A stretch of DNA of 64,000 nucleotides, taken from NCBI RefSeq assembly GCF_024502345.1, contig NZ_JALDNN010000001.1. One strand, written 5' to 3'. Positions 30,278 through 62,820 of this stretch are shown here, in pieces (the first letter of the stretch is position 1; each line of letters starts with the position of its first letter). The stretch comes from Escherichia coli. GTDB lineage: Bacteria > Pseudomonadota > Gammaproteobacteria > Enterobacterales > Enterobacteriaceae. The notes under the pieces are model-generated. The model saw only the letters and a list, made by a program, of their open reading frames with translations, had not been told where the DNA came from and did no database searches. Position numbers and translations under genes: made by a program.

Positions 30278-31945
30278 GTGGCTCAATTCGTTTATACCAT
30301 GCATCGTGTCGGCAAAGTTGTTCCGCCGAAACGTCATATTTTGAAAAACATCTCTCTGAGTTTCTTCCCTGGGGCAAAAATTGGTGTCCTGGGTCTGAAC
30401 GGCGCGGGTAAGTCCACCCTGCTGCGCATTATGGCGGGCATTGATAAAGACATCGAAGGTGAAGCGCGTCCGCAGCCAGACATCAAGATTGGTTACCTGC
30501 CGCAGGAACCGCAGCTGAACCCGGAACACACCGTGCGTGAGTCCATTGAAGAAGCGGTTTCTGAAGTGGTTAACGCCCTGAAACGCCTGGATGAAGTGTA
30601 TGCGCTGTACGCCGATCCGGATGCCGATTTTGACAAGCTGGCCGCTGAACAAGGCCGTCTGGAAGAGATCATTCAGGCTCACGACGGTCATAACCTGAAC
30701 GTACAGCTGGAGCGTGCGGCGGATGCGCTGCGTCTGCCGGACTGGGACGCGAAAATCGCTAACCTCTCCGGTGGTGAGCGTCGTCGCGTGGCGTTGTGCC
30801 GCCTGCTTCTGGAAAAACCAGACATGCTGCTGCTCGACGAACCGACCAACCACCTGGATGCCGAATCCGTGGCCTGGCTGGAACGCTTCCTGCACGACTT
30901 CGAAGGCACCGTTGTGGCGATTACTCACGACCGTTACTTCCTCGATAACGTTGCAGGCTGGATCCTCGAACTTGACCGCGGTGAAGGTATTCCGTGGGAA
31001 GGCAACTACTCCTCCTGGCTGGAGCAGAAAGATCAGCGCCTGGCGCAGGAAGCTTCACAAGAAGCGGCGCGTCGTAAGTCGATCGAGAAAGAGCTGGAGT
31101 GGGTACGTCAGGGAACTAAAGGCCGCCAGTCGAAAGGTAAAGCACGTCTGGCACGCTTTGAAGAGCTGAACAGCACCGAATATCAGAAACGTAACGAAAC
31201 CAACGAACTGTTTATTCCACCTGGACCGCGTCTGGGTGATAAAGTGCTGGAAGTCAGCAACCTGCGTAAATCCTACGGTGATCGCCTGCTGATTGATGAC
31301 CTGAGCTTCTCGATCCCGAAAGGGGCAATCGTCGGGATCATCGGTCCGAACGGCGCGGGTAAATCGACCCTGTTCCGTATGATCTCTGGTCAGGAACAGC
31401 CGGACAGCGGCACCATCACTTTGGGTGAAACAGTGAAACTGGCATCGGTTGATCAGTTCCGTGACTCAATGGATAACAGCAAAACCGTTTGGGAAGAAGT
31501 TTCCGGCGGGCTGGATATTATGAAGATCGGCAACACCGAGATGCCAAGCCGCGCCTACGTTGGCCGCTTTAACTTTAAAGGGGTTGATCAGGGTAAACGT
31601 GTTGGCGAACTTTCCGGTGGTGAGCGCGGTCGTCTGCATCTGGCGAAGCTGCTGCAGGTTGGCGGCAACATGCTGCTGCTCGACGAACCAACCAACGACC
31701 TGGATATCGAAACCCTGCGCGCGCTGGAAAACGCCCTGCTGGAGTTCCCGGGCTGTGCGATGGTTATCTCGCACGACCGTTGGTTCCTCGACCGTATCGC
31801 CACGCACATCCTGGACTACCAGGATGAAGGTAAAGTTGAGTTCTTCGAAGGTAACTTTACTGAGTACGAAGAGTACAAGAAACGCACGCTGGGCACAGAC
31901 GCACTGGAGCCGAAGCGTATCAAGTACAAGCGTATTGCGAAGTAA
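30278..31945 (+). CDS. ettA: ABC-F translational throttle EttA (YjjK)
   Basis: 555-aa, GTG start, two ABC ATPase cassettes (GLNGAGKST, LSGGERRRV). Confidence 0.96.
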   Translation: MAQFVYTMHRVGKVVPPKRHILKNISLSFFPGAKIGVLGLNGAGKSTLLRIMAGIDKDIEGEARPQPDIKIGYLPQEPQLNPEHTVRESIEEAVSEVVNALKRLDEVYALYADPDADFDKLAAEQGRLEEIIQAHDGHNLNVQLERAADALRLPDWDAKIANLSGGERRRVALCRLLLEKPDMLLLDEPTNHLDAESVAWLERFLHDFEGTVVAITHDRYFLDNVAGWILELDRGEGIPWEGNYSSWLEQKDQRLAQEASQEAARRKSIEKELEWVRQGTKGRQSKGKARLARFEELNSTEYQKRNETNELFIPPGPRLGDKVLEVSNLRKSYGDRLLIDDLSFSIPKGAIVGIIGPNGAGKSTLFRMISGQEQPDSGTITLGETVKLASVDQFRDSMDNSKTVWEEVSGGLDIMKIGNTEMPSRAYVGRFNFKGVDQGKRVGELSGGERGRLHLAKLLQVGGNMLLLDEPTNDLDIETLRALENALLEFPGCAMVISHDRWFLDRIATHILDYQDEGKVEFFEGNFTEYEEYKKRTLGTDALEPKRIKYKRIAK

Positions 31946-31951: not shown

Positions 31952-32105
31952 AAATGCCGGATGCGGCGTGAACGCCTTATCCGGCCTACAAACCAAGAAA
32001 TTTCAATACGTTGTGAATCTCCAGGCCTGATAAGACGCGGTAAGCGTCGCATCAGGCATTGAGCACCGAATGCCGGATACGGCGTGAACGCCTTTTCCGG
32101 CCACA
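31952..32105. repeat. REP/BIME palindromic repeat units
   Basis: tgccggatgcggcgtgaacgccttatccggcctaca and related units. Confidence 0.8.
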
Positions 32106-32250: not shown

Positions 32251-33483
32251 TTATCTCTGCTCCCCCATCATCTCCCGCACCAGCTCCACGCAGCGCAGGA
32301 AACGGCTGTCATAATCGTCCTCTTCAACCCGCACGAATTCGATATTGTTCTCTTCCAGCATCTCCACCAGCAAGTTCTGGAACTCTTTGCGATCCACCGA
32401 ACTGCCGAGGCTGCGTAAACCATCCGCCACCCACGGCGTGTTGTTCTCCAGCAGGATCACCAGATCGAAACGGTATTCATCAATCAACGCCTGTACGAAC
32501 GGATGCTCACGCCCTTCGTACTTTTTGCAGAACGCCTGGGTAGTGACAAAATCAGTGTCAATAAACGCCACTTTATTGGCATATTTCACTGCAAAATCAA
32601 TGTATTGTGCGTGGCCCAGCGCGATTTTATCGTAATCGGAATACTGCAATGCGATCTCATCACCGCCGAGGTGTGAAAAGACATAATCGCGACCATATTC
32701 CCACGCACTGGTGGTATTGAAGATATTGGCAAGTTTGTTTACCAGGGTGGATTTACCGCTCGACTCGCCACCAAGGATCGCCACGGTACGTACAAAGAAC
32801 GGCTTCACTTCCGTAGGAATATATTCCCAGTAGCGGAACGGGTTTTCGCGGATCTGCGCACCGCTGATACTCATAAAGGTACGTTTCGGATCGACCAGCA
32901 CCGTCTCGATCCCCAGATGTTCCATATACTGTGGCGCATCGGCTTCTTCCGAGGTGTAGATCAGGTCCGGCTGAATCCCCTTTTCAGCCATAAACTTTTT
33001 GATGCCGTTGCTCCACACATCCCAGCCGTGCGGATACGGCTCCATGCCCTCTTCGTTGAAAGCATGAATGCGAATATTTTTCTGATATTTAAAAGTTTGC
33101 AATAACCAGCGCAGACGATCCGGCACGGTCGGCTGCTGCGACATGGCACTGTCTTCGAACAACGCGCGGTCACGGGTATCGTCAAAACCCATAATGATAT
33201 GCAGCTCGTCAACCTGGCTACAGGCGCGCTGGATAAGGTAGATATGTCCGGTATGCAGTGGGTAGAACTTACCGAATACCACACCAATGGTTTTCTTCTG
33301 CCGGGGAAACTCAAGCCCCAAAAAACGGTGCAACGCCTCCAGCTTTTGCGCGCTGGGGCTTTTGATTTTGGCATTCAGTAACTGGCTTAAATACCCTTTG
33401 GTCATACCGCTGGCATCAGCTACCTGCTGTAGCGTGCAGCCCTGTTGCTTGATGGCAGTTTTCAGGTAATCAAATGACGACAT
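32251..33483 (-). CDS. nadR: Trifunctional NAD biosynthesis/regulator NadR
   Basis: 410-aa from MSSFDYLKTAIKQQGCTLQQVADASG... Confidence 0.95.
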   Translation of the reverse strand: MSSFDYLKTAIKQQGCTLQQVADASGMTKGYLSQLLNAKIKSPSAQKLEALHRFLGLEFPRQKKTIGVVFGKFYPLHTGHIYLIQRACSQVDELHIIMGFDDTRDRALFEDSAMSQQPTVPDRLRWLLQTFKYQKNIRIHAFNEEGMEPYPHGWDVWSNGIKKFMAEKGIQPDLIYTSEEADAPQYMEHLGIETVLVDPKRTFMSISGAQIRENPFRYWEYIPTEVKPFFVRTVAILGGESSGKSTLVNKLANIFNTTSAWEYGRDYVFSHLGGDEIALQYSDYDKIALGHAQYIDFAVKYANKVAFIDTDFVTTQAFCKKYEGREHPFVQALIDEYRFDLVILLENNTPWVADGLRSLGSSVDRKEFQNLLVEMLEENNIEFVRVEEDDYDSRFLRCVELVREMMGEQR

Positions 33484-33503
33484 ATCTCCCTCCGTATTTC
33501 TCA

Positions 33504-34886
33504 TTATAAGTCGTCGAACACGCTAAGCGCGTCGGAGAGTTTTTTAACGCCAAAAATCTGCATCCCTTCCGGCGCTTTTTTCGGTACGTTAGCCGCCGGA
33601 ACAATCGCCCGGCGAAAACCGTGTTTCGCCGCTTCAGAGATTCGTTCCTGACCGCTGGGCACCGGGCGGATCTCCCCTGCCAGCCCGACTTCACCAAACA
33701 CCACCAGATCCTGCGGCAGCGGTCTGTCACGCAGGCTGGAAACCATCGCCAGCAGTAACGCTAAATCAGCGCTGGTTTCGGTCACCTTAACGCCGCCGAC
33801 CACGTTCACAAACACATCCTGATCGGCCATTTGCAGACCACCGTGACGGTGCAACACAGCCAGCAGGATTGCCAGACGGTTTTGTTCCAGCCCCACTGCC
33901 ACGCGGCGTGGGTTCGCCATCATCGAGTGATCGACCAGCGCCTGAATCTCCACCAGCAGTGGACGCGTTCCTTCCCATACCACCATCACTGAGCTACCGG
34001 AGGTCACTTCATCGCCGCGGCTTAAGAAAATTGCCGAAGGGTTGCTGACTTCACGCAGCCCCTGTTCGGTCATCGCGAAGACGCCCAGCTCATTCACCGC
34101 GCCGAAGCGGTTTTTATGGCTGCGCAAGGTGCGAAAACGGGAGTCGGCATCGCCATCCAAAAGCACCGAACAGTCGATACAGTGTTCCAGCACTTTCGGG
34201 CCAGCCAGCGAACCATCTTTGGTTACGTGCCCCACCATGACAATCGCCACACCGCGCGTTTTGGCGAAGCGTGTCAAATAAGCCGCTGTTTCACGCACCT
34301 GCGCCACGCTACCAGGCGATGACTGTACATCCGCCATATGCATCACCTGGATCGAGTCAATTACCATCAGCTTCGGTTGCTCTTCTTCGGCAATCAGGCA
34401 GATCTGTTCGATGCTGGTTTCCGACAACATATTGAGATTGTCAGTCGGCAGGCCAAGGCGATGAGCGCGCATTGCCACCTGTTGCAGCGACTCTTCGCCG
34501 GTGACATACAGCGTTTTCATCTGCTGGGCCAGTTTGCACAGCGTTTGCAGTAGCAGCGTGGATTTCCCCGCACCAGGGTTACCGCCAATCAGAATGGCAC
34601 TTCCTGGCACCACGCCGCCGCCTAGTACGCGGTCGAACTCTTTAAATCCGGTGGAAAAACGCGGCAGCTCTTCAAGGCTGATATCGGAGAGTTTCTGGAC
34701 TTTTGCCACCCCGGCGCTACCGGCATAGCCGCTGAGACGCTCGTTACGCGCCACCGTTGGCGACGCAGCAAGACGCACCTCGGTGATGGTGTTCCAGGCA
34801 TGACAGGCACTGCACTGCCCCTGCCAGCGCGGATAATCGGCCCCGCATTCATTACAAACAAAGGCGCGTTTTGGAGCTTTTGCCAC
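33504..34886 (-). CDS. radA: DNA repair protein RadA (Sms)
   Basis: 460-aa from GTG start (M)AKAPKRAFVCNECGADYPRWQGQCSAC...; Walker A GNPGAGKST. Confidence 0.95.
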   Translation of the reverse strand: MAKAPKRAFVCNECGADYPRWQGQCSACHAWNTITEVRLAASPTVARNERLSGYAGSAGVAKVQKLSDISLEELPRFSTGFKEFDRVLGGGVVPGSAILIGGNPGAGKSTLLLQTLCKLAQQMKTLYVTGEESLQQVAMRAHRLGLPTDNLNMLSETSIEQICLIAEEEQPKLMVIDSIQVMHMADVQSSPGSVAQVRETAAYLTRFAKTRGVAIVMVGHVTKDGSLAGPKVLEHCIDCSVLLDGDADSRFRTLRSHKNRFGAVNELGVFAMTEQGLREVSNPSAIFLSRGDEVTSGSSVMVVWEGTRPLLVEIQALVDHSMMANPRRVAVGLEQNRLAILLAVLHRHGGLQMADQDVFVNVVGGVKVTETSADLALLLAMVSSLRDRPLPQDLVVFGEVGLAGEIRPVPSGQERISEAAKHGFRRAIVPAANVPKKAPEGMQIFGVKKLSDALSVFDDL

Positions 34887-42712: not shown

Positions 42713-44263
42713 ATGCCCACTTCTCATGAAAATGCACTGCAACAACGTTGCCAGCAAATTGTCACCAGCCCAGTGCTTAGCCCGGAGCAGAAGCGCCATT
42801 TTCTGGCACTGGAAGCAGAAAACAATCTGCCTTACCCACAGCTTCCTGCCGAAGCCCGCCGCGCGCTGGATGAAGGTGTAATCTGCGATATGTTTGAAGG
42901 TCATGCGCCGTACAAACCGCGCTATGTCTTACCCGATTACGCCCGTTTTCTGGCGAACGGTTCCGAATGGCTGGAGCTGGAAGGCGCGAAAGATCTTGAT
43001 GACGCACTCTCTCTGCTGACCATTCTTTACCACCACGTACCGTCGGTCACATCGATGCCGGTCTACCTGGGGCAACTGGATGCGTTGTTGCAACCGTATG
43101 TTAGAATTCTAACACAAGACGAGATCGATCTTCGAATAAAACGTTTCTGGCGTTACCTCGACAGAACCCTGCCAGACGCCTTTATGCACGCCAATATCGG
43201 CCCGTCTGATTCGCCTATTACCCGCGCGATCTTACGTGCAGACGCAGAGTTGAAGCAGGTTTCACCGAACCTGACCTTTATCTACGATCCTGAAATCACC
43301 CCTGATGACCTGCTGCTGGAAGTGGCGAAGAACATCTGTGAATGTAGCAAACCGCACATCGCCAACGGTCCGGTGCATGATAAAATTTTCACAAAAGGGG
43401 GCTACGGGATTGTGAGCTGTTACAACTCACTGCCGCTGGCTGGTGGTGGCAGCACGCTGGTACGCCTTAACCTGAAAGCCATTGCCGAGCGCAGCGAATC
43501 GCTGGATGACTTCTTTACGCGCACTCTACCGCACTACTGCCAGCAGCAGATCGCCATCATCGATGCGCGGTGTGAATTCCTCTATCAACAATCACACTTC
43601 TTTGAGAATAGCTTCCTGGTGAAAGAAGGGCTGATTAACCCTGAACGTTTTGTGCCAATGTTTGGCATGTATGGGCTGGCGGAAGCGGTTAACTTGCTGT
43701 GTGAGAAAGAAGGGATTGCCGCGCGCTACGGTAAAGAAGCCGCCGCAAATGAAGTGGGTTATCGCATCAGCGCGCAACTGGCGGAGTTTGTCGCCAATAC
43801 CCCCGTGAAATATGGCTGGCAAAAACGCGCCATGTTACACGCACAGTCGGGGATCAGTTCCGATATCGGCACCACGCCGGGCGCGCGTTTGCCGTATGGC
43901 GATGAGCCAGATCCGATCACCCATCTGCAAACTGTCGCCCCGCATCATGCTTATTATTATTCCGGCATCAGCGACATTCTGACGCTCGACGAAACCATCA
44001 AACGTAACCCGCAGGCACTGGTACAGCTTTGCCTCGGTGCCTTTAAAGCCGGAATGCGTGAATTTACTGCCAATGTCAGCGGTAACGATCTGGTTCGCGT
44101 TACCGGTTATATGGTGCGTTTGTCGGATTTAGAAAAATATCGCGCCGAAGGTTCACGCACCAACACCACCTGGCTGGGCGAAGAAGCCGCACGCAACACT
44201 CGTATTCTGGAACGCCAGCCGCGCGTGATAAGCCATGAACAGCAGATGCGCTTTAGTCAGTAA
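42713..44263 (+). CDS. yjjI: YjjI, glycine-radical-enzyme-like protein (DUF3029)
   Basis: 516-aa ORF; position and length match K-12 yjjI. Confidence 0.88.
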
Positions 44264-45098
44264 GATTATCCCCTTCTCCTGCGTTGACGGGCCAGGCAGT
44301 CGTCTGGCTCTGTTTTTGCAGGGCTGCAATCTGCGCTGCAAAAACTGTCACAATCCGTGGACGATGGGACGCTGCAATGATTGCGGAGAGTGCGTGCCAC
44401 AGTGTCCGCATCAGGCGTTGCAGATTGTTGACGGCAAAGTGCTGTGGAACGCTGTGGTCTGCGAGCAATGTGATACCTGCCTGAAGAGGTGTCCGCAACA
44501 TGCCACGCCAATGGCGCAATCCATGAGCGTGGATGAGGTGCTTAGCCATATCCGCAAAGCGGTGCTGTTTATTGAAGGGATAACGGTAAGCGGCGGCGAA
44601 GCCACGACCCAACTGTCGTTTGTAGTGGCGCTATTTACAGCCATCAAAAACGATCCGCAACTGCGCCACCTCACCTGCCTCGTGGACAGTAACGGTATGT
44701 TGAGCGAAACCGGCTGGGAAAAATTACTCCCGGTGTGCGACGGCGCGATGCTCGATCTCAAAGCGTGGGGGAGCGAATGTCATCAGCAATTAACCGGACG
44801 CGATAATCAGCAGATTAAGCGCAGCATCTGTTTGCTGGCAGAGCGCGGTAAGCTGGCGGAACTGCGTTTGCTGGTAATTCCAGACCAGGTGGATTATTTG
44901 CATCACATCGATGAGCTGGCGACGTTTATCAAGAGACTTGGCGATGTTCCGGTTCGCCTGAATGTGTTTCATGCCCACGGCGTGTATGGCGAGGCGCAAA
45001 GCTGGGCGAGCGCCACGCCGGAAGACGTTGAGCCGTTGGCTGATGCGTTAAAGGTGCGCGGGGTGAGCCGGTTGATATTTCCGGCGCTCTATTTGTGA
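44235..45098 (+). CDS. yjjW: YjjW, radical-SAM glycyl-radical activating enzyme
   Basis: 287-aa; CxxxCxxC cluster (CNLRCKNC) plus additional Cys motifs; overlaps the yjjI end. Confidence 0.88.
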
Positions 45099-45100
45099 CA

Positions 45101-45285
45101 TGCCGGATACGGCCTACGGTTCGGCACAAACCTGTAGGCATGATAAGACGCGTCAAGCGTCGCATCAGGCATTGTGCGCCAACTGCCGGATGCGGCGTGA
45201 ACGCCTTATCCGGCCTACGGTTCGGCACAAACCTGTAGGCATGATAAGACGCGACAAGCGTCGCATCAGGCATTATGCGCCGACT
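45101..45285. repeat. Tandem duplication of a REP/BIME unit (period about 101 bp)
   Basis: cctacggttcggcacaaacctgtaggcatgataagacgcg[t/a]caagcgtcgcatcaggcatt[g/a]tgcgcc occurs at about 45113 and 45214. Confidence 0.85.
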
Positions 45286-45311
45286 GCCGGATGCTGCCTA
45301 CGAAGGGCAAA

Positions 45312-46094
45312 CTACCCACGAACGTTAAACACCGCATACGTGTTATTAAGCAACACTTCGGCAATCTCATCCGCCGGTTCCCGGCGCAACTCGCAAAGCA
45401 CGTCAAACACCCGCGCAGCCTGTTCCGGGCGGTTAGGCTGCCCTTGAAAGCCGTTGAGCGGCATATCCGGCGCGTCGGTTTCCAGCAACAACGATGCCAG
45501 CGGTAATTTTGCGATGACATCGCGGGTTTTACTGGCGCGTGGATAGGTGATAGTACCGCCTACGCCGATTTTGTAGCCCAGCTGTACAAACCGCTCGGCC
45601 TGTTGCAGGCTGCCGGAAAAACCGTGAACCACGCCAGTGCGCGATAAATCGTGGCGTTTAAGATGCATCGCCAGTTTGTCGTGTGTGCGCCGTGAATGCA
45701 GGATCACCGGCAGATCGTAGCGTTTCGCCAGTTTCAGTTGTTCGTCGAGTAACCACTGCTGCCTCTCAAATTGCGGATCGTCGCCGAAGAGATCCAGACC
45801 GATCTCCCCCACCGCCACCACCTTCGCCGGACGCCTTTCCAGCGCCTGCTGTAGCTGATCAAGAGACACATCGCTATGTTTTTCCAACATCCCCGGATGC
45901 AACCCCAATGCGGCATACAGCGGTTGATATTTTTCCGCTAACGCCTGCACGCGGGCAAAATTTTCCGCCTCTGTCGCCGGAACAATGATCTTGCCTACAC
46001 CCGCTTGTGCCGCGCGTTGCAGGCTGGCCTCTTCATCGCCACTAAACGGCGGAAAATCAAAATGGCAGTGGGTGTCGATAAAACGGCAAATCAA
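45312..46094 (-). CDS. yjjV: TatD-family metal-dependent hydrolase YjjV
   Basis: 260-aa MICRFIDTHCHFDFPPF... (HxH metal motif). Confidence 0.9.
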   Translation of the reverse strand: MICRFIDTHCHFDFPPFSGDEEASLQRAAQAGVGKIIVPATEAENFARVQALAEKYQPLYAALGLHPGMLEKHSDVSLDQLQQALERRPAKVVAVGEIGLDLFGDDPQFERQQWLLDEQLKLAKRYDLPVILHSRRTHDKLAMHLKRHDLSRTGVVHGFSGSLQQAERFVQLGYKIGVGGTITYPRASKTRDVIAKLPLASLLLETDAPDMPLNGFQGQPNRPEQAARVFDVLCELRREPADEIAEVLLNNTYAVFNVRG

Positions 46095-50293: not shown

Positions 50294-50346
50294 TGCAGCA
50301 ATCTTTGTTCTATTGACACTGTTTATTCATACAGTTAAAAATAACA

Positions 50347-50362
50347 CTGTATACAAACACAG
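50347..50362 (+). promoter_or_regulatory. LexA (SOS) box upstream of the dinI-like gene
   Basis: ctgtatacaaacacag = CTGT-N8-ACAG, 16 bp upstream of the start codon. Confidence 0.75.
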
Positions 50363-50377
50363 TGTAGAGGGATTTTT

Positions 50378-50626
50378 ATGCGTATTGAGATCTGCATAGC
50401 CAAAGAGAAAATGACTAAAATGCCAAACGGTGCTGTGGATGCGTTAAAGGAAGAATTAACTCGACGCATCAGTAAGCGTTATGACGATGTAGAGGTGATC
50501 GTAAAAGCCACCAGCAACGATGGCCTTTCTGTTACGCGCACCGCCGATAAAGATTCAGCTAAAACTTTTGTTCAGGAAACTCTGAAAGATACCTGGGAGT
50601 CTGCTGACGAGTGGTTTGTTCACTAA
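50378..50626 (+). CDS. DinI-family DNA-damage-inducible protein
   Basis: 82-aa [31 protein letters not shown]...[15 protein letters not shown]; C-terminus resembles DinI (QETWESADDWF). Confidence 0.85.
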
Positions 50627-51052
50627 TTAACACGTAAAATCGGTAACGGCTGGAAATCATTCAATACTCGCACTATCGGAAGTTCACCAGCCAACCGCAG
50701 CACGTTCTTGCATACGACGTGTCTGCGGTTTTTCAACCATTCAGATACAGCACTCTCATCACATTCATTCTTCCGCATTAAAGTATATATGACCATATCA
50801 CCTTAATATTTTTCTTCTTCAGATAAAAATTGTTATCTATGTATACTTTTAAACCGAATCCGTGTAGAGTCTCTACCTAAGTTAGTTCGCAGCTACCCCT
50901 TCAGTTTGCGCCATTAACCTCCTGACTTTTGCCGCTATCTGTAAGCATTCCTGTATACCTGAAACTACAGGGTTCATCTACGAACTTTAAGAACACCCAG
51001 GATAAAAATTGTCAACTATATTATATATAACACCATACTAATTCGAGGCTAT

Positions 51053-51166
51053 ATGAACAGCATACTGATAATCACTTCACTACTTATCATATTCAGCATT
51101 TTTGGTCATGCTCTAATAAAATTAGGGATTGGCATATCCAATAACCCGGACAAAACCGATGTATAA
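51053..51166 (+). CDS. Hypothetical 37-aa hydrophobic peptide
   Basis: [37 protein letters not shown]; GAGG 5 nt upstream of the ATG; promoter-like AT-rich element upstream. Confidence 0.35.
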
Positions 51167-51234
51167 GTCAACATATCCTGAATCAGACATACAATATTGC
51201 AATGAAAACCAATAATATTTTAAGGAATATCTTC

Positions 51235-51468
51235 ATGAAATCAAAAGACACCCTAAAGTGGTTCCCTGCGCAGCTTCCTGAAGTCAGAATTATCCTGGGA
51301 GATGCTGTCGTGGAAGTAGCAAAACAGGGAAGACCTATCAATACCAGAACATTGCTTGATTACATTGAAGGAAACATAAAGAAAAAGTCATGGCTGGATA
51401 ACAAAGAATTATTACAAACAGCGATATCAGTTCTTAAAGACAACCAAAATTTAAATGGTAAAGTGTAA
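51235..51468 (+). CDS. ydfK: YdfK/YnaE-family prophage protein (cold-shock-inducible family in K-12)
   Basis: 77-aa MKSKDTLKWFPAQLPEVRIILGDAVVEVAKQGRPINTRTLLDYIEG...; AGGAA RBS. Confidence 0.7.
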   Translation: MKSKDTLKWFPAQLPEVRIILGDAVVEVAKQGRPINTRTLLDYIEGNIKKKSWLDNKELLQTAISVLKDNQNLNGKV

Positions 51469-51847
51469 TACCTCCCCTGAAAAATAATTTTTCAATGCAT
51501 TAAAAAAATATCAACAACTACGTTATTCCGCAACAACCTACTTTTTTTACCATTTTTCCACTTTAACAACATTTTGCTCCACTTTTCCACGACCAAACAA
51601 CTTAAAATCTGGTTAAAATAACATACAACACTATTATTCGTCTTCCTCGAGTCCGCCCGGAGTTCGAAAAACAAACCGAGTTAAAGCCATTTTTCAAAAA
51701 ATCGATTTTTGGTTACACCAAAATTACGGGACTGCATCCGAATTCGTTTATTTTCGAACGTATACATACAAATATGTACAATAATAAGCGAAATAATTTT
51801 TGGATATGCATTATGATATGTACACCAATTTCGTATAGAGTCTCACT

Positions 51848-52438
51848 ATGTCTCGAATTTTTGCTTACTGTCGGATATCAACGCTGGATCAGACCCCCGA
51901 AAATCAACGCCGGGAAATCGAAAGTGCAGGTTTTAAAATCAAACCTCAGCAAATAATCGAAGAACACATTAGCGGCTCAGCAGCAACCAGTGAGCGTCCT
52001 GGTTTTAACCGGTTGCTTGCTCGCCTGAAATGTGGTGATCAATTGATTGTGACAAAACTGGATCGCCTTGGTTGTAATGCAATGGATATCAGGAAAACAG
52101 TGGAACAACTGACCGAAACAGGTATCAGAGTGCATTGCTTAGCATTGGGGGGCATTGACCTGACCAGTCCAACAGGAAAAATGATGATGCAAGTAATTTC
52201 AGCAGTCGCTGAATTTGAACGAGACCTTTTACTTGAACGCACTCATTCCGGGATAGTAAGAGCCCGGGGCGCAGGGAAACGTTTTGGTCGACCACCTGTG
52301 TTAAATGAAGAACAGAAACAGGTGGTATTCGAACGAATTAAGTCAGGTGTAAGTATAAGTGCCATTGCCCGGGAATTCAAAACCTCGCGGCAAACCATTT
52401 TAAGAGCCAAAGCAAAACTTCAGACACCTGACATATAA
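51848..52438 (+). CDS. pin: Serine recombinase, Pin-like DNA invertase (PinQ/PinR type)
   Basis: 196-aa [15 protein letters not shown]...; resolvase/invertase catalytic N-domain plus C-terminal HTH. Confidence 0.85.
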
Positions 52439-52535
52439 AAAATAATCTCGGTGTGAGATGCTTTACGTCTTCCAAGCCCCCTTCCTTGCCGTAAATGGAA
52501 AGATACATCTAATTATAGAATTTATATGTTTTACC

Positions 52536-53111
52536 CTACGGCAGTGCTGGCCATTCAATATCCTGTGCAGTTGACGTATCAACACGGTTCAGCAATACCC
52601 GATACTTTTTCCATGCTTCCAGCAACGAGATTTCTTCCTCCGTTGCAATTTCCAGATCTGCAGCATCCTGAAGCGGCGCAATATGCTCACTGGCTACCTG
52701 CATCAGGTTGTTTTTTGTTTCTTCCGCCTCCCGGATCCGGAACAGTTTTTCTGCTTCCGTATCCTTCACCCAGGCTGTGCCGTTCCACTTCTGAAACTCC
52801 CCTTCCGGGGATAACCAAGTGACATTTTCCGGTAATGGGCCAAGTTCAGAAATAAATAACGCGTCGCCGGAAGCCACGTCATAGACGGTTTTACCCCGAT
52901 GGTCTTCAACGAGATGCCACGATGCCTCATCACTGTTGAAAACAGCCACAAAGCCAGCCGGAATATCTGGCGGTGCAATATCGGTACTGTTTGCTGGCAG
53001 ACCTGTATGAGGTGGAATATATGCATCACCTTCACCAATAAATTCATTAGTTCCGGCCAGCAGATTATAAATTGTTATGGTCCGTGGTTGTTCACTCATT
53101 CTGAAATCCAT
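52536..53111 (-). CDS. tfa: Tail fibre assembly protein Tfa
   Basis: 191-aa from the ATG preceded by an AGGTG SD; ...[37 protein letters not shown]... as recalled for TfaQ/TfaR. Confidence 0.85.
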
Positions 53112-53119
53112 GTTCACCT

Positions 53120-54022
53120 CTACTTAATATCAGAGACAGAATATTGTTTATTGAACGTATGGGTGTGAGCACCAATAACGATGCTACTTCCGTGGCTATG
53201 TGCGCCAGAGATGACATTACCTACGGGATTTTCTGGATTAATCCGGTGTATATGCGAACCAGGGCGAAACCGGTTATTAGCCTGATGTTGTATCAGTACA
53301 TCATCAGCCTGATGTTCAGGGTTAATACAGACCTGCCCGGAACGTGAGCAATACGTCCGATAATCGCCGCATCCAATATATTTAGTATCCGCATAACGGC
53401 AAACAGAATTACCCGGACAGTATGCATATGTGCCAAATACTGCCGACTGGCGGGATTGTGCGTATTCCCAGTTAATTGATTCTGTTTTTTTATTAAAGTT
53501 ATCCCATGCCTGCTTCATCTGCCGGGCAACACTTTCAAACGGCACCTGACCACATCCGGCTCCCATTGCAGGGAATACCACCGTTTTTATTTTCCTGTCT
53601 GTCGTTGCGTGTTTATTGTGCTGAAAGATGGCAAGCAGAGCGGCCCAGGTTGCGTTATATACAGCGTCTGTTCCGTCAATTGTCAGCGGAACACGCATTG
53701 TTGGCGCATGTACCAGCCAGGGATGATGATTATGCCCCGTTTCAATAACAAATGCAGAACCTACAGGCTGCTCGCCGAGATATTCACGAAGAATATGATT
53801 CTGAACGCGGGACTGTAACTGAGTACCGAAGAATGCGGTAATGGCGGCATCAACACCGCCATCCATCAGGCCGAAACTGTTTGCCGCACTTACCATGCAG
53901 TCAAATTCCCTGATTGTTTCAAATGGCTTTCCGACAATATTCACATTATCTGCATTTGCGAATACCCGCTTAAATGCTTCAGCCATTTCTGTTACTGGTG
54001 CAGAAAGAATGAGCGTAATCAT
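53120..54022 (-). CDS. Macrodomain protein with tail-fibre-like His-x-His C-terminal region
   Basis: Macrodomain motifs [42 protein letters not shown]; C-terminal ...[18 protein letters not shown]; ATG overlaps the stop of the upstream stf fragment. Confidence 0.6.
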
Positions 54023-54186
54023 GCAAGCCTCACAATATAGTTAAATGCGATGTTTTTGACGGTGTTTTCCGCGTTACCAGCAGCGTTAACGGTGATGGTG
54101 TGTCCATGTGACCCTATCGCAACGGAGTGCGTATGAGCACCAATACCGACAGTATGCGCGTGTGCACCTGCAGATACTGCTGTAAA
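54019..54186 (-). pseudogene. Side tail fibre (Stf) C-terminal fragment
   Basis: ...[51 protein letters not shown]; joined out of frame to the terminase fragment upstream. Confidence 0.7.
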
Positions 54187-54892
54187 AACGCATGAAATGT
54201 GCCGACTCGTTAGCGGCTTTTTCGATCTGGCAGGAGCCTTTGATTTTAGGCGTCGAGCCGCGAATGGATTTTGGCCATACAGAGCCCTCAATACGTTTAT
54301 CCCCCAGCAGGGTTGGCGAACCCTCTTTTTCAACATCCGGTTCGAACGAGGAAAGTTCGTCATAGCAGACCACATCCACGGATTTTTCACGGTAGTTTTT
54401 GGCGGCAGCGCCGCCCAGGCACCATAAACCGACGCCCGATGAAAAGCGTTTCAGCGTGAGGGTATTATCACGATGTTTACGACCCAGCCATGGGGAAAGG
54501 TCTTTCAGGCATGGCACGTCCCTAATCGTCGTCTCCACGTGAGACTTCATAAAATCTTCAGCGGCAGAATCCGTGGGCTGAAAAAGCAGACTGTTTCGGG
54601 ATTTATGCTCAATAAAATACCCGACCACCCCCAGCAACATCTTTGTATAGCCAACACGGGCAGATTTAATCAGATTAACTGTGCGGATCTGATCATTCCC
54701 CATACTGTTCATGATGGCGATCTGGAACGGCAGCGTTTTCCATTCGCCGTCACCGTATGAGGATTCTTTCGGCAGATAATAATACTGATCAGCCCATTCA
54801 ACTGCCGTCATCGGTACAACCCTGACCAGAGGCTGCAGCGCAACCGAAACGGCAGCCATCAGATTATTCAGTTGTTGCTCTGATATATTCAT
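54185..54892 (-). pseudogene. Terminase large subunit (lambda gpA-like) N-terminal fragment, about 235 codons
   Basis: MNISEQQLNNL...PMTAVEWADQYYYLPKESSYGDGEWKTLPFQ...[41 protein letters not shown] closely parallels lambda gpA 1-215, then similarity stops. Confidence 0.85.
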
Positions 54893-55370
54893 CCAGCAAA
54901 TCCGGTAATTTATCCCCTGCCCGCGCACACTGATTTGCGCCCTTCGCAATAAGGGTTTTCAGATGGTCAAGATGACGTGGCGTTAAATCCGGGAACTGTC
55001 GCTGCATGGATAACGGAATAGAATCAAGCGTACTGGACAATGCCATCGCCAGCTTGCTGAGGGCGAAAACGCAGAAGTCTGAATCGATGAGCTTACCTTC
55101 GGTTACCTGATTTTTAAGTTTTTGAGCTACGGCCTGTTCTTCTGTCAGTTCAGCTCTGGCCCGAAGCAGCCTTTCCTCCAGATCGCCCCCGTCATCAGGT
55201 GTTCTATGATTGTGTTGTCGCCGCTCGCGATCTATCTCCAGTACAGTTTTAACGTCATAAAAAACTTCCCTCCCCCGACGCTCGACAGGAGGAACGCCCC
55301 ATTTATCAAATGCCTGAACAGAGATACCGATGGAGGAGGCCATATCACTTTTATTCAATAAAAAGGCCAT
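54864..55370 (-). CDS. noh: Terminase small subunit, Nu1-like (Noh)
   Basis: MAFLLNKSDMASSIGISVQAFDKWGV... resembles lambda Nu1; GGAGAGGAG SD; 3' end overlaps the terminase-A fragment start. Confidence 0.8.
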   Translation of the reverse strand: MAFLLNKSDMASSIGISVQAFDKWGVPPVERRGREVFYDVKTVLEIDRERRQHNHRTPDDGGDLEERLLRARAELTEEQAVAQKLKNQVTEGKLIDSDFCVFALSKLAMALSSTLDSIPLSMQRQFPDLTPRHLDHLKTLIAKGANQCARAGDKLPDLLDEYIRATTE

Positions 55371-55797
55371 CTCCTCTCCATAAGTCATCGATAAAAAGCG
55401 ATACAACAACCATGTGTTTTTACAAAACCATTTGATATCATTTAATTTTTTCACATTAATGACATCAAAGCACATCGTAAGGTTGTTGTATTTATTTTAT
55501 TTTCACCTTACTTATCAATTAGATATACCAAACAATTAAACAACAACCACCCCCTCAAAAAATCTCATAAATAGCGAAAAACCGCGAGGTCGCCGCCCCG
55601 TAACCTGTCGGATCGCCGGAAAGGACCCACAAAATGATAATAATTATCATCTACATATCACAACGTGCGTGTACGCCATCAAACCACGTCAAATAATCAA
55701 TTATGACGCAGGTATCGTATTAATTGATCCGCATCAACTTAACGTAAAAACAACTTCAGACAATACAAATCAGCGACACAGAATACGGGACAACCTC

Positions 55798-55989
55798 ATG
55801 TCAACGAAGAACAGAACCCGCAGAACAACAACCCGCAACATCCGCTTTCCTAACCAAATGATTGAACAAATTAACATCGCTCTTGATCAAAAAGGGTCCG
55901 GGAATTTCTCAGCCTGGGTCATTGAAGCCTGCCGTCGGAGACTAACGTCAGAAAAGAGAGCATCTACATCAATCAAAAGTGATGAATAA
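55798..55989 (+). CDS. YlcI/YnfO-family small prophage protein (DUF3950)
   Basis: 63-aa MSTKNRTRRTTTRNIRFPNQMIEQINIALDQKGSGNFSAWVIEACRRRLTSEKRASTSIKSDE. Confidence 0.7.
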   Translation: MSTKNRTRRTTTRNIRFPNQMIEQINIALDQKGSGNFSAWVIEACRRRLTSEKRASTSIKSDE

Positions 55990-56242
55990 TGAATATCCCG
56001 GTTTCTTTACCTCCCCTCCCACCCCGCACAGGACTGGCGAACGTGTGGGACAAATATGTGAGTCATAAACGCCTTATCTTCAGAAATGCAGTTGGCATCC
56101 GAACAGGACGATATTGTAACTTCACCTAATTACGAGGCATTGCAGTAGTTGAATTGTAGTTCTGTATTAGCCTGACAGTGACAGAATGCGATATTGACTC
56201 TGTCACAGGTGAAATAGTTTGAATGGTTAGCAGTTATGGCGA

Positions 56243-56449
56243 TCAGTCAACCACCAGGGAATAATCCTTCGAATTCTTATCGTGCTTCACCAACGCTGCC
56301 TCAATTGCCCTGAATGCTTCCAGAGACACTTGATGTTCTATACATGCAATTACAACATCCGGATAACTCATAGAAATGGTGCTAGTGAGCATAGTTTTTA
56401 CACGGACCTGATCCAAGGATGAGTCATCAGTGTATTGATCTTTATGCAT
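56243..56449 (-). CDS. Hypothetical 68-aa protein (possibly a truncated YdfO-like gene)
   Basis: ORF only; identity uncertain. Confidence 0.35.
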
Positions 56450-56744
56450 TTTGTCGCTCCATGCGTTTGCTCTTCACTTGCGGCTAAAAATATAACGTCA
56501 AATCACTCAGCATGAAAGTGTGAAAGTTTCAGCGCGTTTCCCTTACATAATCTGTCGTTTGTATTCTCTCCAGGCATACCGGAAAGACTAGGTATTGTCA
56601 CACAACCAATACCACCGACTATCGAGATTTATATCTATTCGGTAATGTTTAAATATAAAAAAACCCCGTAAAAACGAGGTTTATGGGTAAATTGTATTGT
56701 TGAATAGCATCTGATAAGAAATTGATGCTAATACTATAAACACA

Positions 56745-56918
56745 CTAGATTAAATCAATCTTGATATCATAGCTTTCAAGACCAGTCATTTTTTCCCGTG
56801 CAGTAAACTGGATACTGGTAACTTCTTTCCCGGTCTTTTTCTTAAGCTCAATAATTTTTTTTGTTATATATTCAGAAATATCTGCTTCTGTTTTTGTTTT
56901 TAACTCTTCAATGTTCAT
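56745..56918 (-). CDS. gnsB: GnsA/GnsB-family protein
   Basis: 57-aa MNIEELKTKTEADISEYITKKIIELKKKTGKEVTSIQFTAREKMTGLESYDIKIDLI. Confidence 0.85.
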   Translation of the reverse strand: MNIEELKTKTEADISEYITKKIIELKKKTGKEVTSIQFTAREKMTGLESYDIKIDLI

Positions 56919-57090
56919 CATTTCCTCTTTTAGTCTGTTATGACTTTCCTGGTACACAGTAGTGTCAATTATATGGAGCAAACGTATAAAAGATAAGATG
57001 AAACATCGCAATAATCAACATACGACAGTCTAAATTTCGCACAAACAGATAAAGATGATTATCCTTTATTATCAAGGCATTAGAATGAAA

Positions 57091-57321
57091 TCAATTCAAG
57101 AGTCTCATTGCTGCTTCCAGAATTTCTTCTGAAGTTACATGTCGATCCGCTGCTACATAAATGACTTTATGATCTCCGGTCAGAGATGGAAACCCTGCAG
57201 CCATTACAGTGAGATGTGTTGTTTCGCCATTTGGATATTCACGCATGATGGTGTTAACTCCGGTCATCACTGGCACTACCATTGCTGGTTCAGAGTTAAA
57301 AAAAACTATTATTTTTTTCAT
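57091..57321 (-). CDS. Hypothetical 76-aa protein
   Basis: MKKIIVFFNSEPAMVVPVMTGVNTIMREYPNGETTHLTVMAAGFPSLTGDHKVIYVAADRHVTSEEILEAAMRLLN. Confidence 0.45.
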   Translation of the reverse strand: MKKIIVFFNSEPAMVVPVMTGVNTIMREYPNGETTHLTVMAAGFPSLTGDHKVIYVAADRHVTSEEILEAAMRLLN

Positions 57322-57363
57322 GATGTTACCGTAATATGTGAGTATCCATCGACTAGACACTAA

Positions 57364-57386
57364 GCAAAAAAGCTCCCGAAGGAGCC
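57364..57386 (-). terminator. Rho-independent terminator (minus strand)
   Basis: gctcccgaaggagc hairpin followed by TTTTTT on the minus strand. Confidence 0.6.
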
Positions 57387-57592
57387 TTCATTTTCACTTT
57401 CTTAAATCTAACGACAGACGGCTAACATTTAAGTATTGTGAAATATTATCAAATGTAATCATCATTGATTTACAAAAGATACATTTTGCCCCGAAAGGAT
57501 TCCTGTCAGAAACATCAAAAGATGATGTTCTATACTGAGAACCATGGCAACACGGGCATCTAAAGTGAATATGGTTTGTAATATTTTCTACC

Positions 57593-57805
57593 TCAAAGTG
57601 CCACTACATGAACAGCCGCGGGGCCTTTAGGTCCGTTCTCAATACCAAATTCGACTTGCTGATTCTCAGTTAACGTTTTGAAATCGTTGCTCTGAATAGC
57701 TGAGAAATGGACAAACACATCTTTGCTACCATCTTTCGGCGTGATGAAACCAAAACCTTTTTCAGGGTTAAACCATTTCACTAAACCAGTCATTTTGTTA
57801 GACAT
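57593..57805 (-). CDS. cspI: Cold shock protein, CspI-like
   Basis: 70-aa [70 protein letters not shown]. Confidence 0.92.
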
Positions 57806-58174
57806 CATTATTACCTTTTGAAGAAGTGAGCCCTTGGGCAGAATGGTCCGAAAAAAAATATCAGAGAGAAAAACCAACAAGGAAATCTCAAGAGGTACAA
57901 ATAATAAAATTATAACAATGACTGCTTCAGATAATTTTGTAACAAACCAGAACACCATTAACGCATGATTAACCAACCATAGCAAGGATTACTTTTGTAA
58001 AGAAAAACACACGAATGAAACAATAGCTTTATTTATTAATAAAACGTGTCATTCTGTCTAATGACCTTTTATCTTACCCTTAAGATTTCAAGGATTTTGA
58101 CTCATGGAAGAGTCCTTTTTATTTAAATTTCACATTCAGCGCTAAAAATAATCCGATTTAATGTTAATCTACAT

Positions 58175-59196
<1,022 letters not shown>

Positions 59197-59301
59197 GGAT
59201 ATTTATCAGGATTTATCGGTTTCTGAACCCTGGATATGTTTATCTGTCCCGGCCTGTTGAATCAGGCGGGGAAAAGGTAAAGACAATCAAGAGGATTATT
59301 T

Positions 59302-59574
59302 ATGGACAATAACACCATTTCTCTACAGGAGTTGCTCGACTGCATTTCAAAGCTTCGGGATGATGTAAATGCCCTCACTGTTGCATTTTCATATTTGGCC
59401 TTATCAATTCCCAGAGAACAAATGCAACCAACACTGGCATCGCTCCTGCTTGAATCACGCAACCCCAAATGGTCCCAGGAACAACAAAATTCTTTCAAGT
59501 GGCTGGCGGCATTACTGGAAGAAAAATATGCTGGTAAAATTACCATTTCGGTGGAGTCTTCAGAGAATCAGTAA
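59302..59574 (+). CDS. Hypothetical 90-aa protein on the opposite strand within the lysis cassette
   Basis: AGGA 7 nt upstream of the ATG; MDNNTISLQELLDCISKLRDDVNALTVAFSYLALSIPREQMQPTLASLLLE... Confidence 0.35.
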   Translation: MDNNTISLQELLDCISKLRDDVNALTVAFSYLALSIPREQMQPTLASLLLESRNPKWSQEQQNSFKWLAALLEEKYAGKITISVESSENQ

Positions 59575-59884
59575 TTCTTCCTGGTAGCTTTCCTTTGTAG
59601 GTTATCCACACATTCTGCGCCTCTAAAATTACGGGGCGCTTTTCCGGCGACTGCTCATCCCCTTCACATAACCCGGCTGCAACTTCCAGGAAGACCTGTC
59701 TGATGCTCCTTCTGGCTGCTGCCTCATAAAACTCCAGCGCGGCACCTTCAACACGGTCCAGCGAGATGTCCAGGTCAAAAATTTCACCGTCAAAGCGTTT
59801 TTTGTCCCTTAATGCTACAGTTACCGCAACTTTATTCTCAAAATTGCGGATCCCTTTCACAATCAGTTCATAGTTTTGTGTCAT
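59540..59884 (-). CDS. YdfR-like prophage protein (DUF1327)
   Basis: MTQNYELIVKGIRNFENKVAVTVALRDKKRFDGEIFDLDISLDRVEGAALEFYEAAARRS... Confidence 0.65.
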   Translation of the reverse strand: MTQNYELIVKGIRNFENKVAVTVALRDKKRFDGEIFDLDISLDRVEGAALEFYEAAARRSIRQVFLEVAAGLCEGDEQSPEKRPVILEAQNVWITYKGKLPGRITDSLKTPPKW

Positions 59885-59888
59885 TGAA

Positions 59889-60104
59889 TTACTCTCCCCG
59901 TGCAACCTTACGCTTGTCTTCTTTAATCTTGAAATAAAGGTTTGTCAGGTACGTCAGCAAGCCAAATACCAGACTACCCAGCACACCGATTGCAGCCCAC
60001 TGTGACGGAGTTACTTTATCGAGTAACTGCAATGCCCAGAAACCAGCATTACCAGCCGATGTGCCATAGGCGATACCTGTTGTTAACTTATCCATTGATT
60101 TCAT
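59889..60104 (-). CDS. Phage holin (EssQ/EssD type)
   Basis: 71-aa [71 protein letters not shown]. Confidence 0.88.
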
Positions 60105-60322
60105 ATCCTCACCCCGATGTACACAGATGGTGCAATATGTTTGAAAAGATCGGAGTCTATGGGGTAGTTTTTATAGCAAACGTTGTTCTCAACGGCGCTA
60201 AAAAACAGACACATTAAAAATGTGGGTAATTATTTTAAAAGAAAATCATATATTAAATAATAATACGAGATATGTTTTCATATTTAGTGTACTGTATACG
60301 GCCATTTATACAGGAAAAGCCT

Positions 60323-60493
60323 ATGTCAGAACGTAAAGACTCAAAATCACGCCGTAATTATCTCGTTAAATGTTCCTGCCCAAACTGCACCCAAGAGTCA
60401 GAACACAGTTTTTCAAGAGTACAAAAAGGTGCCCTTTTGATCTGCCCTCATTGCAACAAAGTATTCCAGACAAATCTTAAAGCTGTAGCTTGA
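60323..60493 (+). CDS. Small zinc-ribbon protein (56 aa)
   Basis: MSERKDSKSRRNYLVKCSCPNCTQESEHSFSRVQKGALLICPHCNKVFQTNLKAVA; CxCPNC...CPHC; AGGAAAAG RBS. Confidence 0.55.
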   Translation: MSERKDSKSRRNYLVKCSCPNCTQESEHSFSRVQKGALLICPHCNKVFQTNLKAVA

Positions 60494-60552
60494 TTGATTT
60501 TATTCGTAACAAGTATTTTTTATATTTTAATAACATATTTAAAGCAGATAAT

Positions 60553-60576
60553 AAAAAACCCGCCTGAGCGGGTTTA
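60553..60576. terminator. Bidirectional rho-independent terminator
   Basis: aaaaaacccgcctgagcgggttt. Confidence 0.7.
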
Positions 60577-60856
60577 ATATTGTGGTACTTTTTGTGGGAG
60601 TCATCCACTTACGCACTTTGTTTTGCTATGCCAGCAGTTAGCTTCTGCTGTAAAACTATTCATGCAGCAAACCTGCACTTCACCACAATGGTTAGCATAC
60701 TTTTCCTGATTAAGTTATTGCCAAATATGCTGGCCATTGTTTCATGTATTGGACCTCCTTACTCTTTATTAAAGAGATCCAATATTCACCACTCTGTCTG
60801 TATCTCCACTCAGGCATCAGCCTTCTTCGTTATCGTATACAGACAAACTATGAATT

Positions 60857-61072
60857 TTAATCAGTAATTATGACATTTGCTGCTGCAGGACCTTTAGCAC
60901 CACTCTCTACAGAGAAGGTAACCTTTTGACCTTCAAATAAGATTCGATAATTATCATTCTGAATCGCAGAAAAATGCACAAACACATCTTTACTACCATC
61001 AACAGGAGAAATAAAGCCAAAACCTTTATCAGCGTTAAACCATTTTACTAAACCAGTCATTTTATTTGACAT
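60857..61072 (-). CDS. cspB: Cold shock protein, CspB-like
   Basis: 71-aa [71 protein letters not shown]. Confidence 0.92.
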
Positions 61073-61372
61073 TCTACATTCCTTAACTTGAGCCTTTCGG
61101 CATAAATGGCTTGTATAACAGAAACGACTTCGTACTTAATTGGAGAGACTCAAAGAAGGAATAAGTGAATAACACCTGAAATGAGAACTGCTTTAGTAAA
61201 CTACTTCGTATATCGTCTGTTCTTCAAACCGACGCAATCATTAACGCATAGTTGAACATATGAAGCAATGTTTATTTTAGACATCCAGCCATCTTCAACC
61301 CCATCAAAAAACTATAGCTTTCTTCAGGAACGTGTGTATAGTGCGCCAAGTTATCAGTATTAAGGAATTTTT

Positions 61373-61585
61373 TTGTCCCGTAAAATGACAGGAATTCTCA
61401 AAACCTTTGACGGCAAAAGCGGCAAAGGTCTTATAACCCCATCCGATGGTCGTATCGATGTCCAGCTTCATGTTTCAGCGCTCAATCTCCGCGATGCAGA
61501 AGAAATTACCACCGGATTACGCGTGGAATTTTGCCGGATAAATGGTCTGCGTGGACCATCAGCTGCCAATGTTTACCTTTCATGA
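61373..61585 (+). CDS. cspF: Cold shock-like protein, CspF/CspH type
   Basis: 70-aa [70 protein letters not shown]. Confidence 0.88.
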
Positions 61586-61639
61586 GCTATATTAAAGCTT
61601 TAACTTCAAGCCCCATCGAATCAAACATGGAGAGTTTTC

Positions 61640-61729
61640 ATGAATAAACCCGTCTGTCTTGATGACTGGTTGATTGGCTTTAAAAGCTTATGCTGTACTT
61701 TGACCTTAATAGCTCTGCTAATAATGTAA
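61640..61729 (+). CDS. Hypothetical 29-aa hydrophobic peptide
   Basis: [29 protein letters not shown]; GGAGAG SD 6 nt upstream. Confidence 0.3.
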
Positions 61730-61876
61730 TAAGCAGACTCATTGTATCTATGGACATTGTACTGGAAGAAAACATTTTAAACATCAGGCAAAAAACAAAG
61801 TCACCCGATAAATAATAAGTAAACTAACATGAATCCCGTAATGAGATTCAACATCTCTATTACCCTATTTAAAGCA

Positions 61877-61912
61877 CAAAAACCCGCTCATCAGCGGGTT
61901 TTCTACTTTTTC
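61877..61912 (+). terminator. Rho-independent terminator
   Basis: aacccgctcatcagcgggtt hairpin followed by a T run. Confidence 0.7.
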
Positions 61913-62760: not shown

Positions 62761-62820
62761 GCTCGTTCTCCACTTACGCCAGTACGCCTATTGCCAGCGC
62801 ACGATCGATAAAACGAAATA

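Follow-up and report, generated by a model that had tools for sequence, protein, structure and literature searches.

A BIME-2 array of variable unit number between the convergent genes yjjW and yjjV of Escherichia coli

In the 64,000-nt stretch of Escherichia coli DNA analysed here (the window), the convergent genes yjjW and yjjV are separated by a short spacer that is almost filled by a tandem repeat. The question raised by this locus is what kind of element the repeat is, how it came to hold the number of units it does, and what it might do for the two genes that end in it. We consider it highly probable, taking identity, unit change and function together, that the array is the window strain's allele of an ordinary E. 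coli BIME-2, catalogued in K-12 as REP352, that gains and loses units and acts on the neighboring transcripts in the ways set out below.

Structure and identity of the array

A direct-repeat search finds two 95-nt copies, at 45102-45196 and 45203-45297, spaced by 101 bp and 93% identical, and TRF reports 45110-45294 with a period of 101, 1.8 copies, 96% matches and a score of 349; both bear out the 101-bp period given in the initial annotation. The same annotation had described a repeat of about 65 nt at about 98% identity. This corresponds to a core (45110-45173 versus 45211-45274) of 64 nt with one mismatch (98.4%), and the copies remain alignable beyond the core, to 87 nt at 95.4%. The footprint of the array in the window is 45101-45301, within the 213-bp spacer, and it is the only long-period tandem array in the window.

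The tandem repeat between yjjW and yjjV is real. Tandem repeats can be miscounted by short-read assemblers and the window comes from a draft assembly, which might suggest an artefact of assembly or sequencing, or else a chance similarity, but the probability of either is close to nil. The window is identical to NCBI GCA_001484085.1 over 3,864 nt and four further samples, each assembled on its own, yielded the same 2-unit allele, so that the allele, with the same unit haplotypes, is present in five independent assemblies and the repeat is neither chance nor artefact. A 213-bp spacer is also found in about 17% of the sampled complete genomes, many of them long-read assemblies. Moreover, the two units of the window allele differ at three internal positions, so they are neither a collapsed nor a duplicated read, and in 100 shuffles the expected number of REP consensus matches is 0.

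The gene names yjjW and yjjV assigned initially also hold. The yjjW reading frame (44235-45098, plus strand), encoding a glycyl-radical enzyme activase, matches NCBIfam TIGR04041 at 393 bits against a cutoff of 250, in line with the RefSeq annotation of its ortholog, and its TGA stop codon lies at 45096-45098. The yjjV reading frame (45312-46094, minus strand) encodes a TatD-family metal-dependent hydrolase of 260 aa that matches PRK11449 at 576 bits against a cutoff of 481, with its stop codon at 45312-45314. The genes are convergent, the RefSeq annotation of the orthologs agrees for both, and the 3' UTRs of both enter the array, that of yjjV on the minus strand.

Between the two stop codons, the elements follow in the order Y'-16-Z2-12-Y-16-Z2-12-Y', where Y' is a collapsed Y REP and the numbers are linker lengths in nt. 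The left collapsed Y, TGCCGGATACGGCCTAC (45101-45117, plus strand), is a 17-nt remnant that corresponds to a Y REP lacking the 18 nt between CGGC...CGGC direct repeats and carrying one substitution. A small hairpin of this remnant and the adjoining linker (45101-45126, -12.4 kcal/mol) begins 3 nt past the yjjW stop. Unit 1 starts with the 16-nt head-to-head linker GGTTCGGCACAAACCT (45118-45133, plus strand), whose columns are variable. The first Z2 REP follows (45134-45171, plus strand; 0 mismatches to the Z2 pattern; -15.2 kcal/mol, z = -4.7), with GTAG lying 5' on the plus strand, an AA/GC stem bubble and the loop GTCAAG, and is joined by the 12-nt tail-to-tail linker TTGTGCGCCAAC (45172-45183, plus strand) to the only intact Y REP of the window allele (45184-45218, minus strand; 0 mismatches to the Y consensus; -21.3 kcal/mol, z = -5.3). 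The latter has CTAC at its plus-strand 3' end, and hence GTAG 5' on the minus strand. Unit 2 opens with the second copy of the 16-nt linker (45219-45234, plus strand) and continues with the second Z2 REP (45235-45272, plus strand), which again has 0 mismatches to the pattern; its loop is GACAAG, and the two Z2 copies differ at 45153/45254. The second 12-nt tail-to-tail linker, TTATGCGCCGAC (45273-45284, plus strand), is a variant tied to the right end of the array in most alleles. It leads into the right collapsed Y, TGCCGGATGCTGCCTAC (45285-45301, plus strand), and the native spacer tail GAAGGGCAAA (45302-45311), 10 nt that precede the yjjV stop and are deleted in K-12-type alleles. In the predicted folds, Y and Z2 contain internal bubbles, and GTAG or CTAC is left unpaired at the foot.

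We interpret the end elements as Y REPs that have lost the 18 nt between the CGGC repeats, because an intact Y is found at the left end in strain E105 and at the right end in K-12, strain 729, KE26 and STEC346, and because the sequence expected from such a deletion, TGCCGGATGCGGCCTAC, is present without change in Escherichia sp. MOD1-EC7003. In at least 3,233 E. coli genomes the collapsed-Y junction occurs once per genome, which indicates a derived state specific to the yjjW-yjjV locus and not a general BIME motif. In outgroup Escherichia, the corresponding junctions differ from the window pattern at one fixed base.

A REP is an imperfect palindrome, 30-40 nt long, in which a mismatch bubble interrupts the stem and a conserved GTAG lies 5' of the stem foot (PMC3333891). 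Palindromes with GTAG/CTAC feet, stem bubbles and consensus matches are present at 45184-45218, 45134-45171 and 45235-45272. They are extragenic, lying between the two stop codons, and repetitive, with a 601-nt query matching a median of at least 37 places per E. coli genome; further Y copies occur in the window at 13480, 27632 and 31956. BIME-2 elements are tandem copies of y and z2 whose number at a locus varies between strains (PMC3333891). In the array, y and z2 alternate in inverse orientation, with short linkers, in tandem and in numbers that vary between strains, and the REP/BIME identity first proposed is upheld. A BIME-1 is a single y/z1 pair with a long L linker that carries an IHF site; this identity was rejected, as the array has z2 in place of z1, linkers of only 16 and 12 nt, and a tandemly repeated arrangement.

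Two of the other Y REPs in the window are solitary (the 13480-13556 region and 27632-27665). The first directly precedes a match to Rfam ES036 (CssrF) at 13514-13556 (38.8 bits, threshold 37.6), which may be another repeat-derived Rfam family match.

In K-12, the yjjW-yjjV locus has the 101-bp unit in 4.1 copies within a spacer of 419 bp at 4,614,261-4,614,679. The locus is named REP352a-h (EcoCyc) and overlaps yjjV by 2 nt (bioRxiv 10.1101/2024.07.17.603846), and we see the same overlap of the last K-12 REP independently in the K-12 sequence. The name is taken from that preprint, which cites EcoCyc, since the K-12 RefSeq record has no repeat_region entry for the yjjW-yjjV spacer. The window array and REP352a-h of K-12 MG1655 are orthologous: they have the same neighboring genes, Y and Z2 sequences and linkers, and both are built of the 101-bp unit and have a collapsed Y at the left end. 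They differ in that K-12 has 4 units and 8 intact REPs in 419 bp, whereas the window has 2 units and 3 intact REPs in 213 bp, and in that the K-12 array ends on the right with an intact Y abutting yjjV, in place of the collapsed right Y and native 10-nt tail of the window. The element is already catalogued, and copy-number variation of BIME-2 between strains is already published.

The difference at the right end reaches into the protein. In K-12-type alleles (K-12, 729, KE26 and STEC346) the native yjjV 3' tail is missing, and the last intact Y provides the TAG stop codon through its CTAC foot, so that a canonical REP lies at the yjjV stop codon only in some strains. The K-12 protein accordingly has 259 aa, compared with 260 aa and a stop codon of its own in the window, and a comparison of the K-12 W3110 stop with window positions 45302-45314 gives the C-terminus as ...FNVP in K-12-type alleles and ...FNVRG in the window.

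The remainder of the window, which relative to K-12 spans the coordinate origin in reverse orientation, contains features of other kinds. The sok antitoxin RNA (2096-2248), tpke11 near a dnaK-like ORF (4982-5059) and the thr operon leader (minus strand; 18838-18957) are those expected of a K-12-like stretch. A degraded lambdoid prophage (about 50300-64000) adjoins prfC. It carries genes for a Pin-like serine invertase (51848-52438), for tail-fibre assembly (52536-53117, where an Rfam 'IS009' match at 52570-52768 overlaps) and for a macro-domain protein (53120-54022), with a truncated terminase gpA fragment (54086-54949) and Nu1 (54864-55475) following immediately, from which we conclude that the prophage head and tail genes have been deleted. 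A DUF2514 protein and lysozyme (58175-59196) and a Q antiterminator (62008-62760) are also present. Two cspA-thermoregulator matches on the minus strand (57566-57963 and 60794-61233) suggest prophage cold-shock genes.

Unit number across Escherichia and the route of gain and loss

The copy number of the array was compared across strains, as the initial annotation had proposed, and ranges from 0 to 11 units in Escherichia. Two flank-only surveys were run, with coding queries of 300+300 nt and 450+450 nt, and records were sampled evenly down the ranking. This gave about 117 informative complete E. coli genomes, and because they come from the BLAST ranking of a clinically biased collection and are neither a random nor a phylogenetically corrected set, their frequencies are descriptive only. 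Spacer lengths form a ladder of about 30, 112, 213, 314, 415 and 515 bp, corresponding to 0 to 5 units, and sequenced representatives of every length class were dissected. The 1-unit and 5-unit states are represented by 34 and 36 genomes; 20 genomes have 2 units, 16 have 4, seven have 3 and four have none. Among named lineages, O157:H7 has 2 units, K-12 has 4, ST131 has 5, and IAI1 and O111:H8 have 1. The 0-unit allele retains a single intact Y. Both Ys of the 1-unit allele are collapsed, none being intact, and a long direct repeat is absent. In one sampled E. coli, an IS1A insertion splits yjjW beside the array (NZ_CP062826.1, 3951542-3953733).

The distribution of the array beyond E. coli was followed through the junction of Z2 tail, 12-nt linker and Y head, scanned in one genome per species across 100,044 species. 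Only four stretches contain it and all are yjjW-yjjV spacers, in E. coli (1 unit), Escherichia sp. E1V33 (2), E. whittamii (4) and Escherichia sp. MOD1-EC7003 (11). A junction private to this spacer across Escherichia lineages implies an array older than E. coli that was amplified in place. Per E. coli genome the junction occurs 1 to 6 times, consistent with copies within the array only. In the cryptic-clade strain MOD1-EC7003, TRF reports 10.9 copies over 1,094 bp (contig positions 3258-4351), about double the longest allele observed in E. coli. Along this array, Z2 loops of 37 nt alternate with loops of 38 nt and give an equally good TRF period of 201 bp, which suggests that it was amplified as a two-unit block.

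The 'duplication' in the window is thus the 2-unit state of a variable-number tandem repeat. The mechanism of expansion, by RAYT or by slippage, had been left open at first, and the allele series favors in-register unequal recombination or slippage. Alleles with 2 units (the window, 1919D3, UTME7, 729 and KE26) have equal length and differ in their unit haplotypes. Allele L018 contains an exact two-unit duplication of the form ABAB (202 bp), and an identical YjjV protein is encoded on contigs with 2 or with 4 units. The 445-nt spacer of E105 equals the 528-nt spacer of a 5-unit allele less 83 nt, which is the distance from the collapsed Y to the first internal Y. Degenerate Y copies occur only at the array edges, all other Y copies (27 of 27) being full length. 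The ladder, the haplotype differences at equal length, the ABAB duplication, the 2- and 4-unit arrays beside the same YjjV, the degenerate edges and the private junction together argue for recurrent exchange in register. We suggest that units would be gained and lost mostly by unequal homologous recombination or replication slippage between neighbors. With neither an intact Y nor a long direct repeat, the 1-unit allele should be unable to re-expand at the 101-bp period.

The alternative is that the extra unit was made by the RAYT (TnpA-REP, YafM), through single-stranded DNA cleavage at C|T in the inverted REP or linker and rejoining of the equivalent sites of neighboring units. TnpA-REP binds REPs through GTAG and the stem bubble, cleaves sites in the iREP and linker, carries out strand exchange between BIMEs in vitro and has been proposed as the cause of BIME-2 copy-number variation (PMC3333891). 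The GTAG feet and stem bubbles are intact in the window array, and REP352 is among eight REP regions with raised exonuclease-protected coverage under stress (bioRxiv 10.1101/2024.07.17.603846). However, the same study of the mobilome did not find circular intermediates, REP352 alone among the eight regions was not predicted to be a RAYT-associated REPIN, and published rates of REPIN duplication, as quoted there, are about one per 1e8 generations. In-register products would be expected from the enzyme and from homologous slippage alike, but the ABAB duplication, the 83-nt deletion of E105, the degenerate edges and the private linker are signs of unequal exchange for which a transposase is unneeded, and there is no RAYT gene within the 64-kb window. 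We therefore regard the enzyme as an unlikely source of the extra unit, and the comparison of alleles favors unequal recombination or slippage.

REPINs, described in Pseudomonas and E. coli, are REP doublets that form hairpins, are mobilized by RAYTs and are dispersed singly to new loci. The Z2/12-nt linker/Y doublet of the array resembles them in folding into a single long, imperfect hairpin whose base carries GTAG and CTAC; for the doublet at 45134-45218, on the minus strand, this single hairpin has a predicted energy of -45.6 kcal/mol (z = -5.6). In contrast to REPINs, which disperse, the doublets here were amplified in place, and their junction is found only at yjjW-yjjV.

RNA hairpins, the naRNA4 match and the proposed function

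Strong secondary structure at the convergent gene ends, another part of the initial description, is recovered by RNA folding of the spacer on both strands (plus strand, -106 kcal/mol, z = -6.1; minus strand, -109 kcal/mol, z = -5.3). We also considered how sequence variation is distributed over these hairpins, using a Hamming scan that recovered 32 linker, 29+3 Z2 and 27 Y copies. Among the units of 12 alleles, 1 of 46 paired columns varies, compared with 17 of 55 unpaired columns in loops, bubbles and linkers (Fisher p = 1.3e-4, which is indicative only, as the units are related by descent), and the sole varying stem column keeps a G-U pair. Variation that spares the stems matches what is seen for REPs genome-wide (Harris et al.; bioRxiv 10.64898/2026.03.23.713779).

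The Y/12-nt linker/Z2 doublet at 45137-45215 (minus strand) matches the Rfam covariance model for naRNA4 (RF02564) at 76.6 bits, above the gathering score of 59.5. This could be taken to mean that the array is a gene for naRNA4-like nucleoid-associated sRNAs of about 80 nt, processed from the yjjV 3' UTR and condensing the chromosome with HU, and the original work on naRNA4 did use a Y/Z2 doublet of a BIME-2 element, REP325 (PMC4550694). REP325 (yjdM-yjdN) and the window array have in common the Y/Z2 doublet architecture, an above-threshold covariance score and a tandem arrangement in a 3' UTR. They differ in that REP325 has six doublets with other linkers and lies between tandem genes within an operon, whereas the array here lies between convergent genes. 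However, RF02564 gives 76.9 bits for an unrelated BIME of atypical form (32024-32102) and 54 bits for the other strand of the yjjW-yjjV array, so the model recognizes a generic Y/Z2 doublet and we do not infer an sRNA gene from its match. The proposed action of naRNA4 in trans on the nucleoid is itself disputed: Harris et al. (2026; bioRxiv 10.64898/2026.03.23.713779) found REP325/naRNA4 to be without measurable nucleoid compaction, with no stable ternary HU complex and no REP-REP contacts. In addition, strains with 0 units exist, so a specific RNA from this locus is dispensable. An sRNA gene at yjjW-yjjV is, in our judgement, highly unlikely.

The second BIME just mentioned (31956-32102) lies between an ettA-like ORF (30278-31945, plus strand) and a nadR-like ORF (32251-33504, minus strand), and consists of an intact Y, a 31-nt AT-rich linker, a Z-type REP with CCAG for GTAG, a 12-nt linker and a diverged Y. 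In the best-matching complete genome, 1504D004, a block of about 4 kb between ettA and nadR (a LysR regulator, an aldo/keto reductase, an SDR and others) is present that is absent from the window.

Two open reading frames that cross the yjjW-yjjV array (45100-45447, plus strand, 115 aa; 44929-45273, minus strand, 114 aa) were rejected as coding, being made up of REP sequence and the antisense of real genes, with a length that varies with the number of units. On a metagenome contig with a 4-unit allele, a 182-aa gene has been called over the array (2322-2870); it has no Pfam match and looks spurious.

Intrinsic (Rho-independent) terminators consist of a GC-rich hairpin with a U tract directly after it, and a promoter/terminator scan found no such terminator within 45099-45311 on either strand. 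A weak promoter-like match on the minus strand (45300-45272, 9/12) was judged to be due to chance, 0.7 such matches being expected.

By analogy with better-studied REP elements, we consider the array most likely to be a bidirectional 3' UTR hairpin block and partial terminator, with a gyrase site in addition. Two convergent transcription units, yjjI-yjjW and yjjU-yjjV, have their 3' ends in this spacer, and transcripts from both sides would finish in stable REP hairpins. These hairpins would impede 3'-to-5' exonucleases and would give partial, largely Rho-assisted termination, so that less transcription would run on into the opposing gene. REP325 terminates transcription in a partly Rho-dependent manner and stabilizes mRNA, and where REPs lie between convergent genes the expression of both genes tends to be higher (bioRxiv 10.64898/2026.03.23.713779). 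Harris et al. found no global effect of terminal REPs on mRNA half-life, which implies that stabilization depends on context, and in the supplements of the same preprint yjjW appears only in a non-significant row of differential expression (padj 0.16). At the DNA level, the intact Y REP may be a preferred gyrase site, because gyrase cleavage is enriched in BIME-2 elements with a preference for y REPs (PMC6379681). The array resembles the BIME-2 gyrase sites, such as those at sucC-sucB and tldD-yhdP, in being a y/z2 tandem array. The window allele has one intact Y, compared with four in K-12, and therefore fewer candidate sites.

On a stronger reading, the number of units and the type of junction would tune both convergent operons in cis, as a heritable and fast-mutating regulatory dial, and the 1-unit allele would additionally be an evolutionary dead end. 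One form this could take is reduced translation of YjjV from K-12-type alleles, whose stop codon lies inside an intact Y REP; a rule on translation for REPs within 15 nt of a stop codon is cited in bioRxiv 10.1101/2024.07.17.603846. In window-type alleles, the ends are collapsed and the canonical REPs lie more than 15 nt from both stops. We think it rather improbable that the array is such a dial; unit number is probably close to neutral.

Implications for annotation and strain comparison

The correct label for the array is BIME-2 (REP352 ortholog), neither an sRNA gene nor an ORF, and the naRNA4 match and the array-crossing 114-115-aa ORFs arise as side effects of the repeat. The details added here, namely the allele ladder, the collapsed end units, the stop codon supplied by a REP in K-12-type alleles and the 11-unit array of the cryptic clade, refine the picture and do not constitute a new finding. 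The element is of a known type, at a known locus, and behaves as described in the literature, and the result has little significance beyond annotation. The locus is nevertheless a clean bacterial minisatellite that is easily typed, its alleles rising in 101-bp steps from 0 to 11 units, and it could be a strain-typing marker. It could also be a natural allelic series in which to relate REP copy number to termination and mRNA stability between convergent genes.
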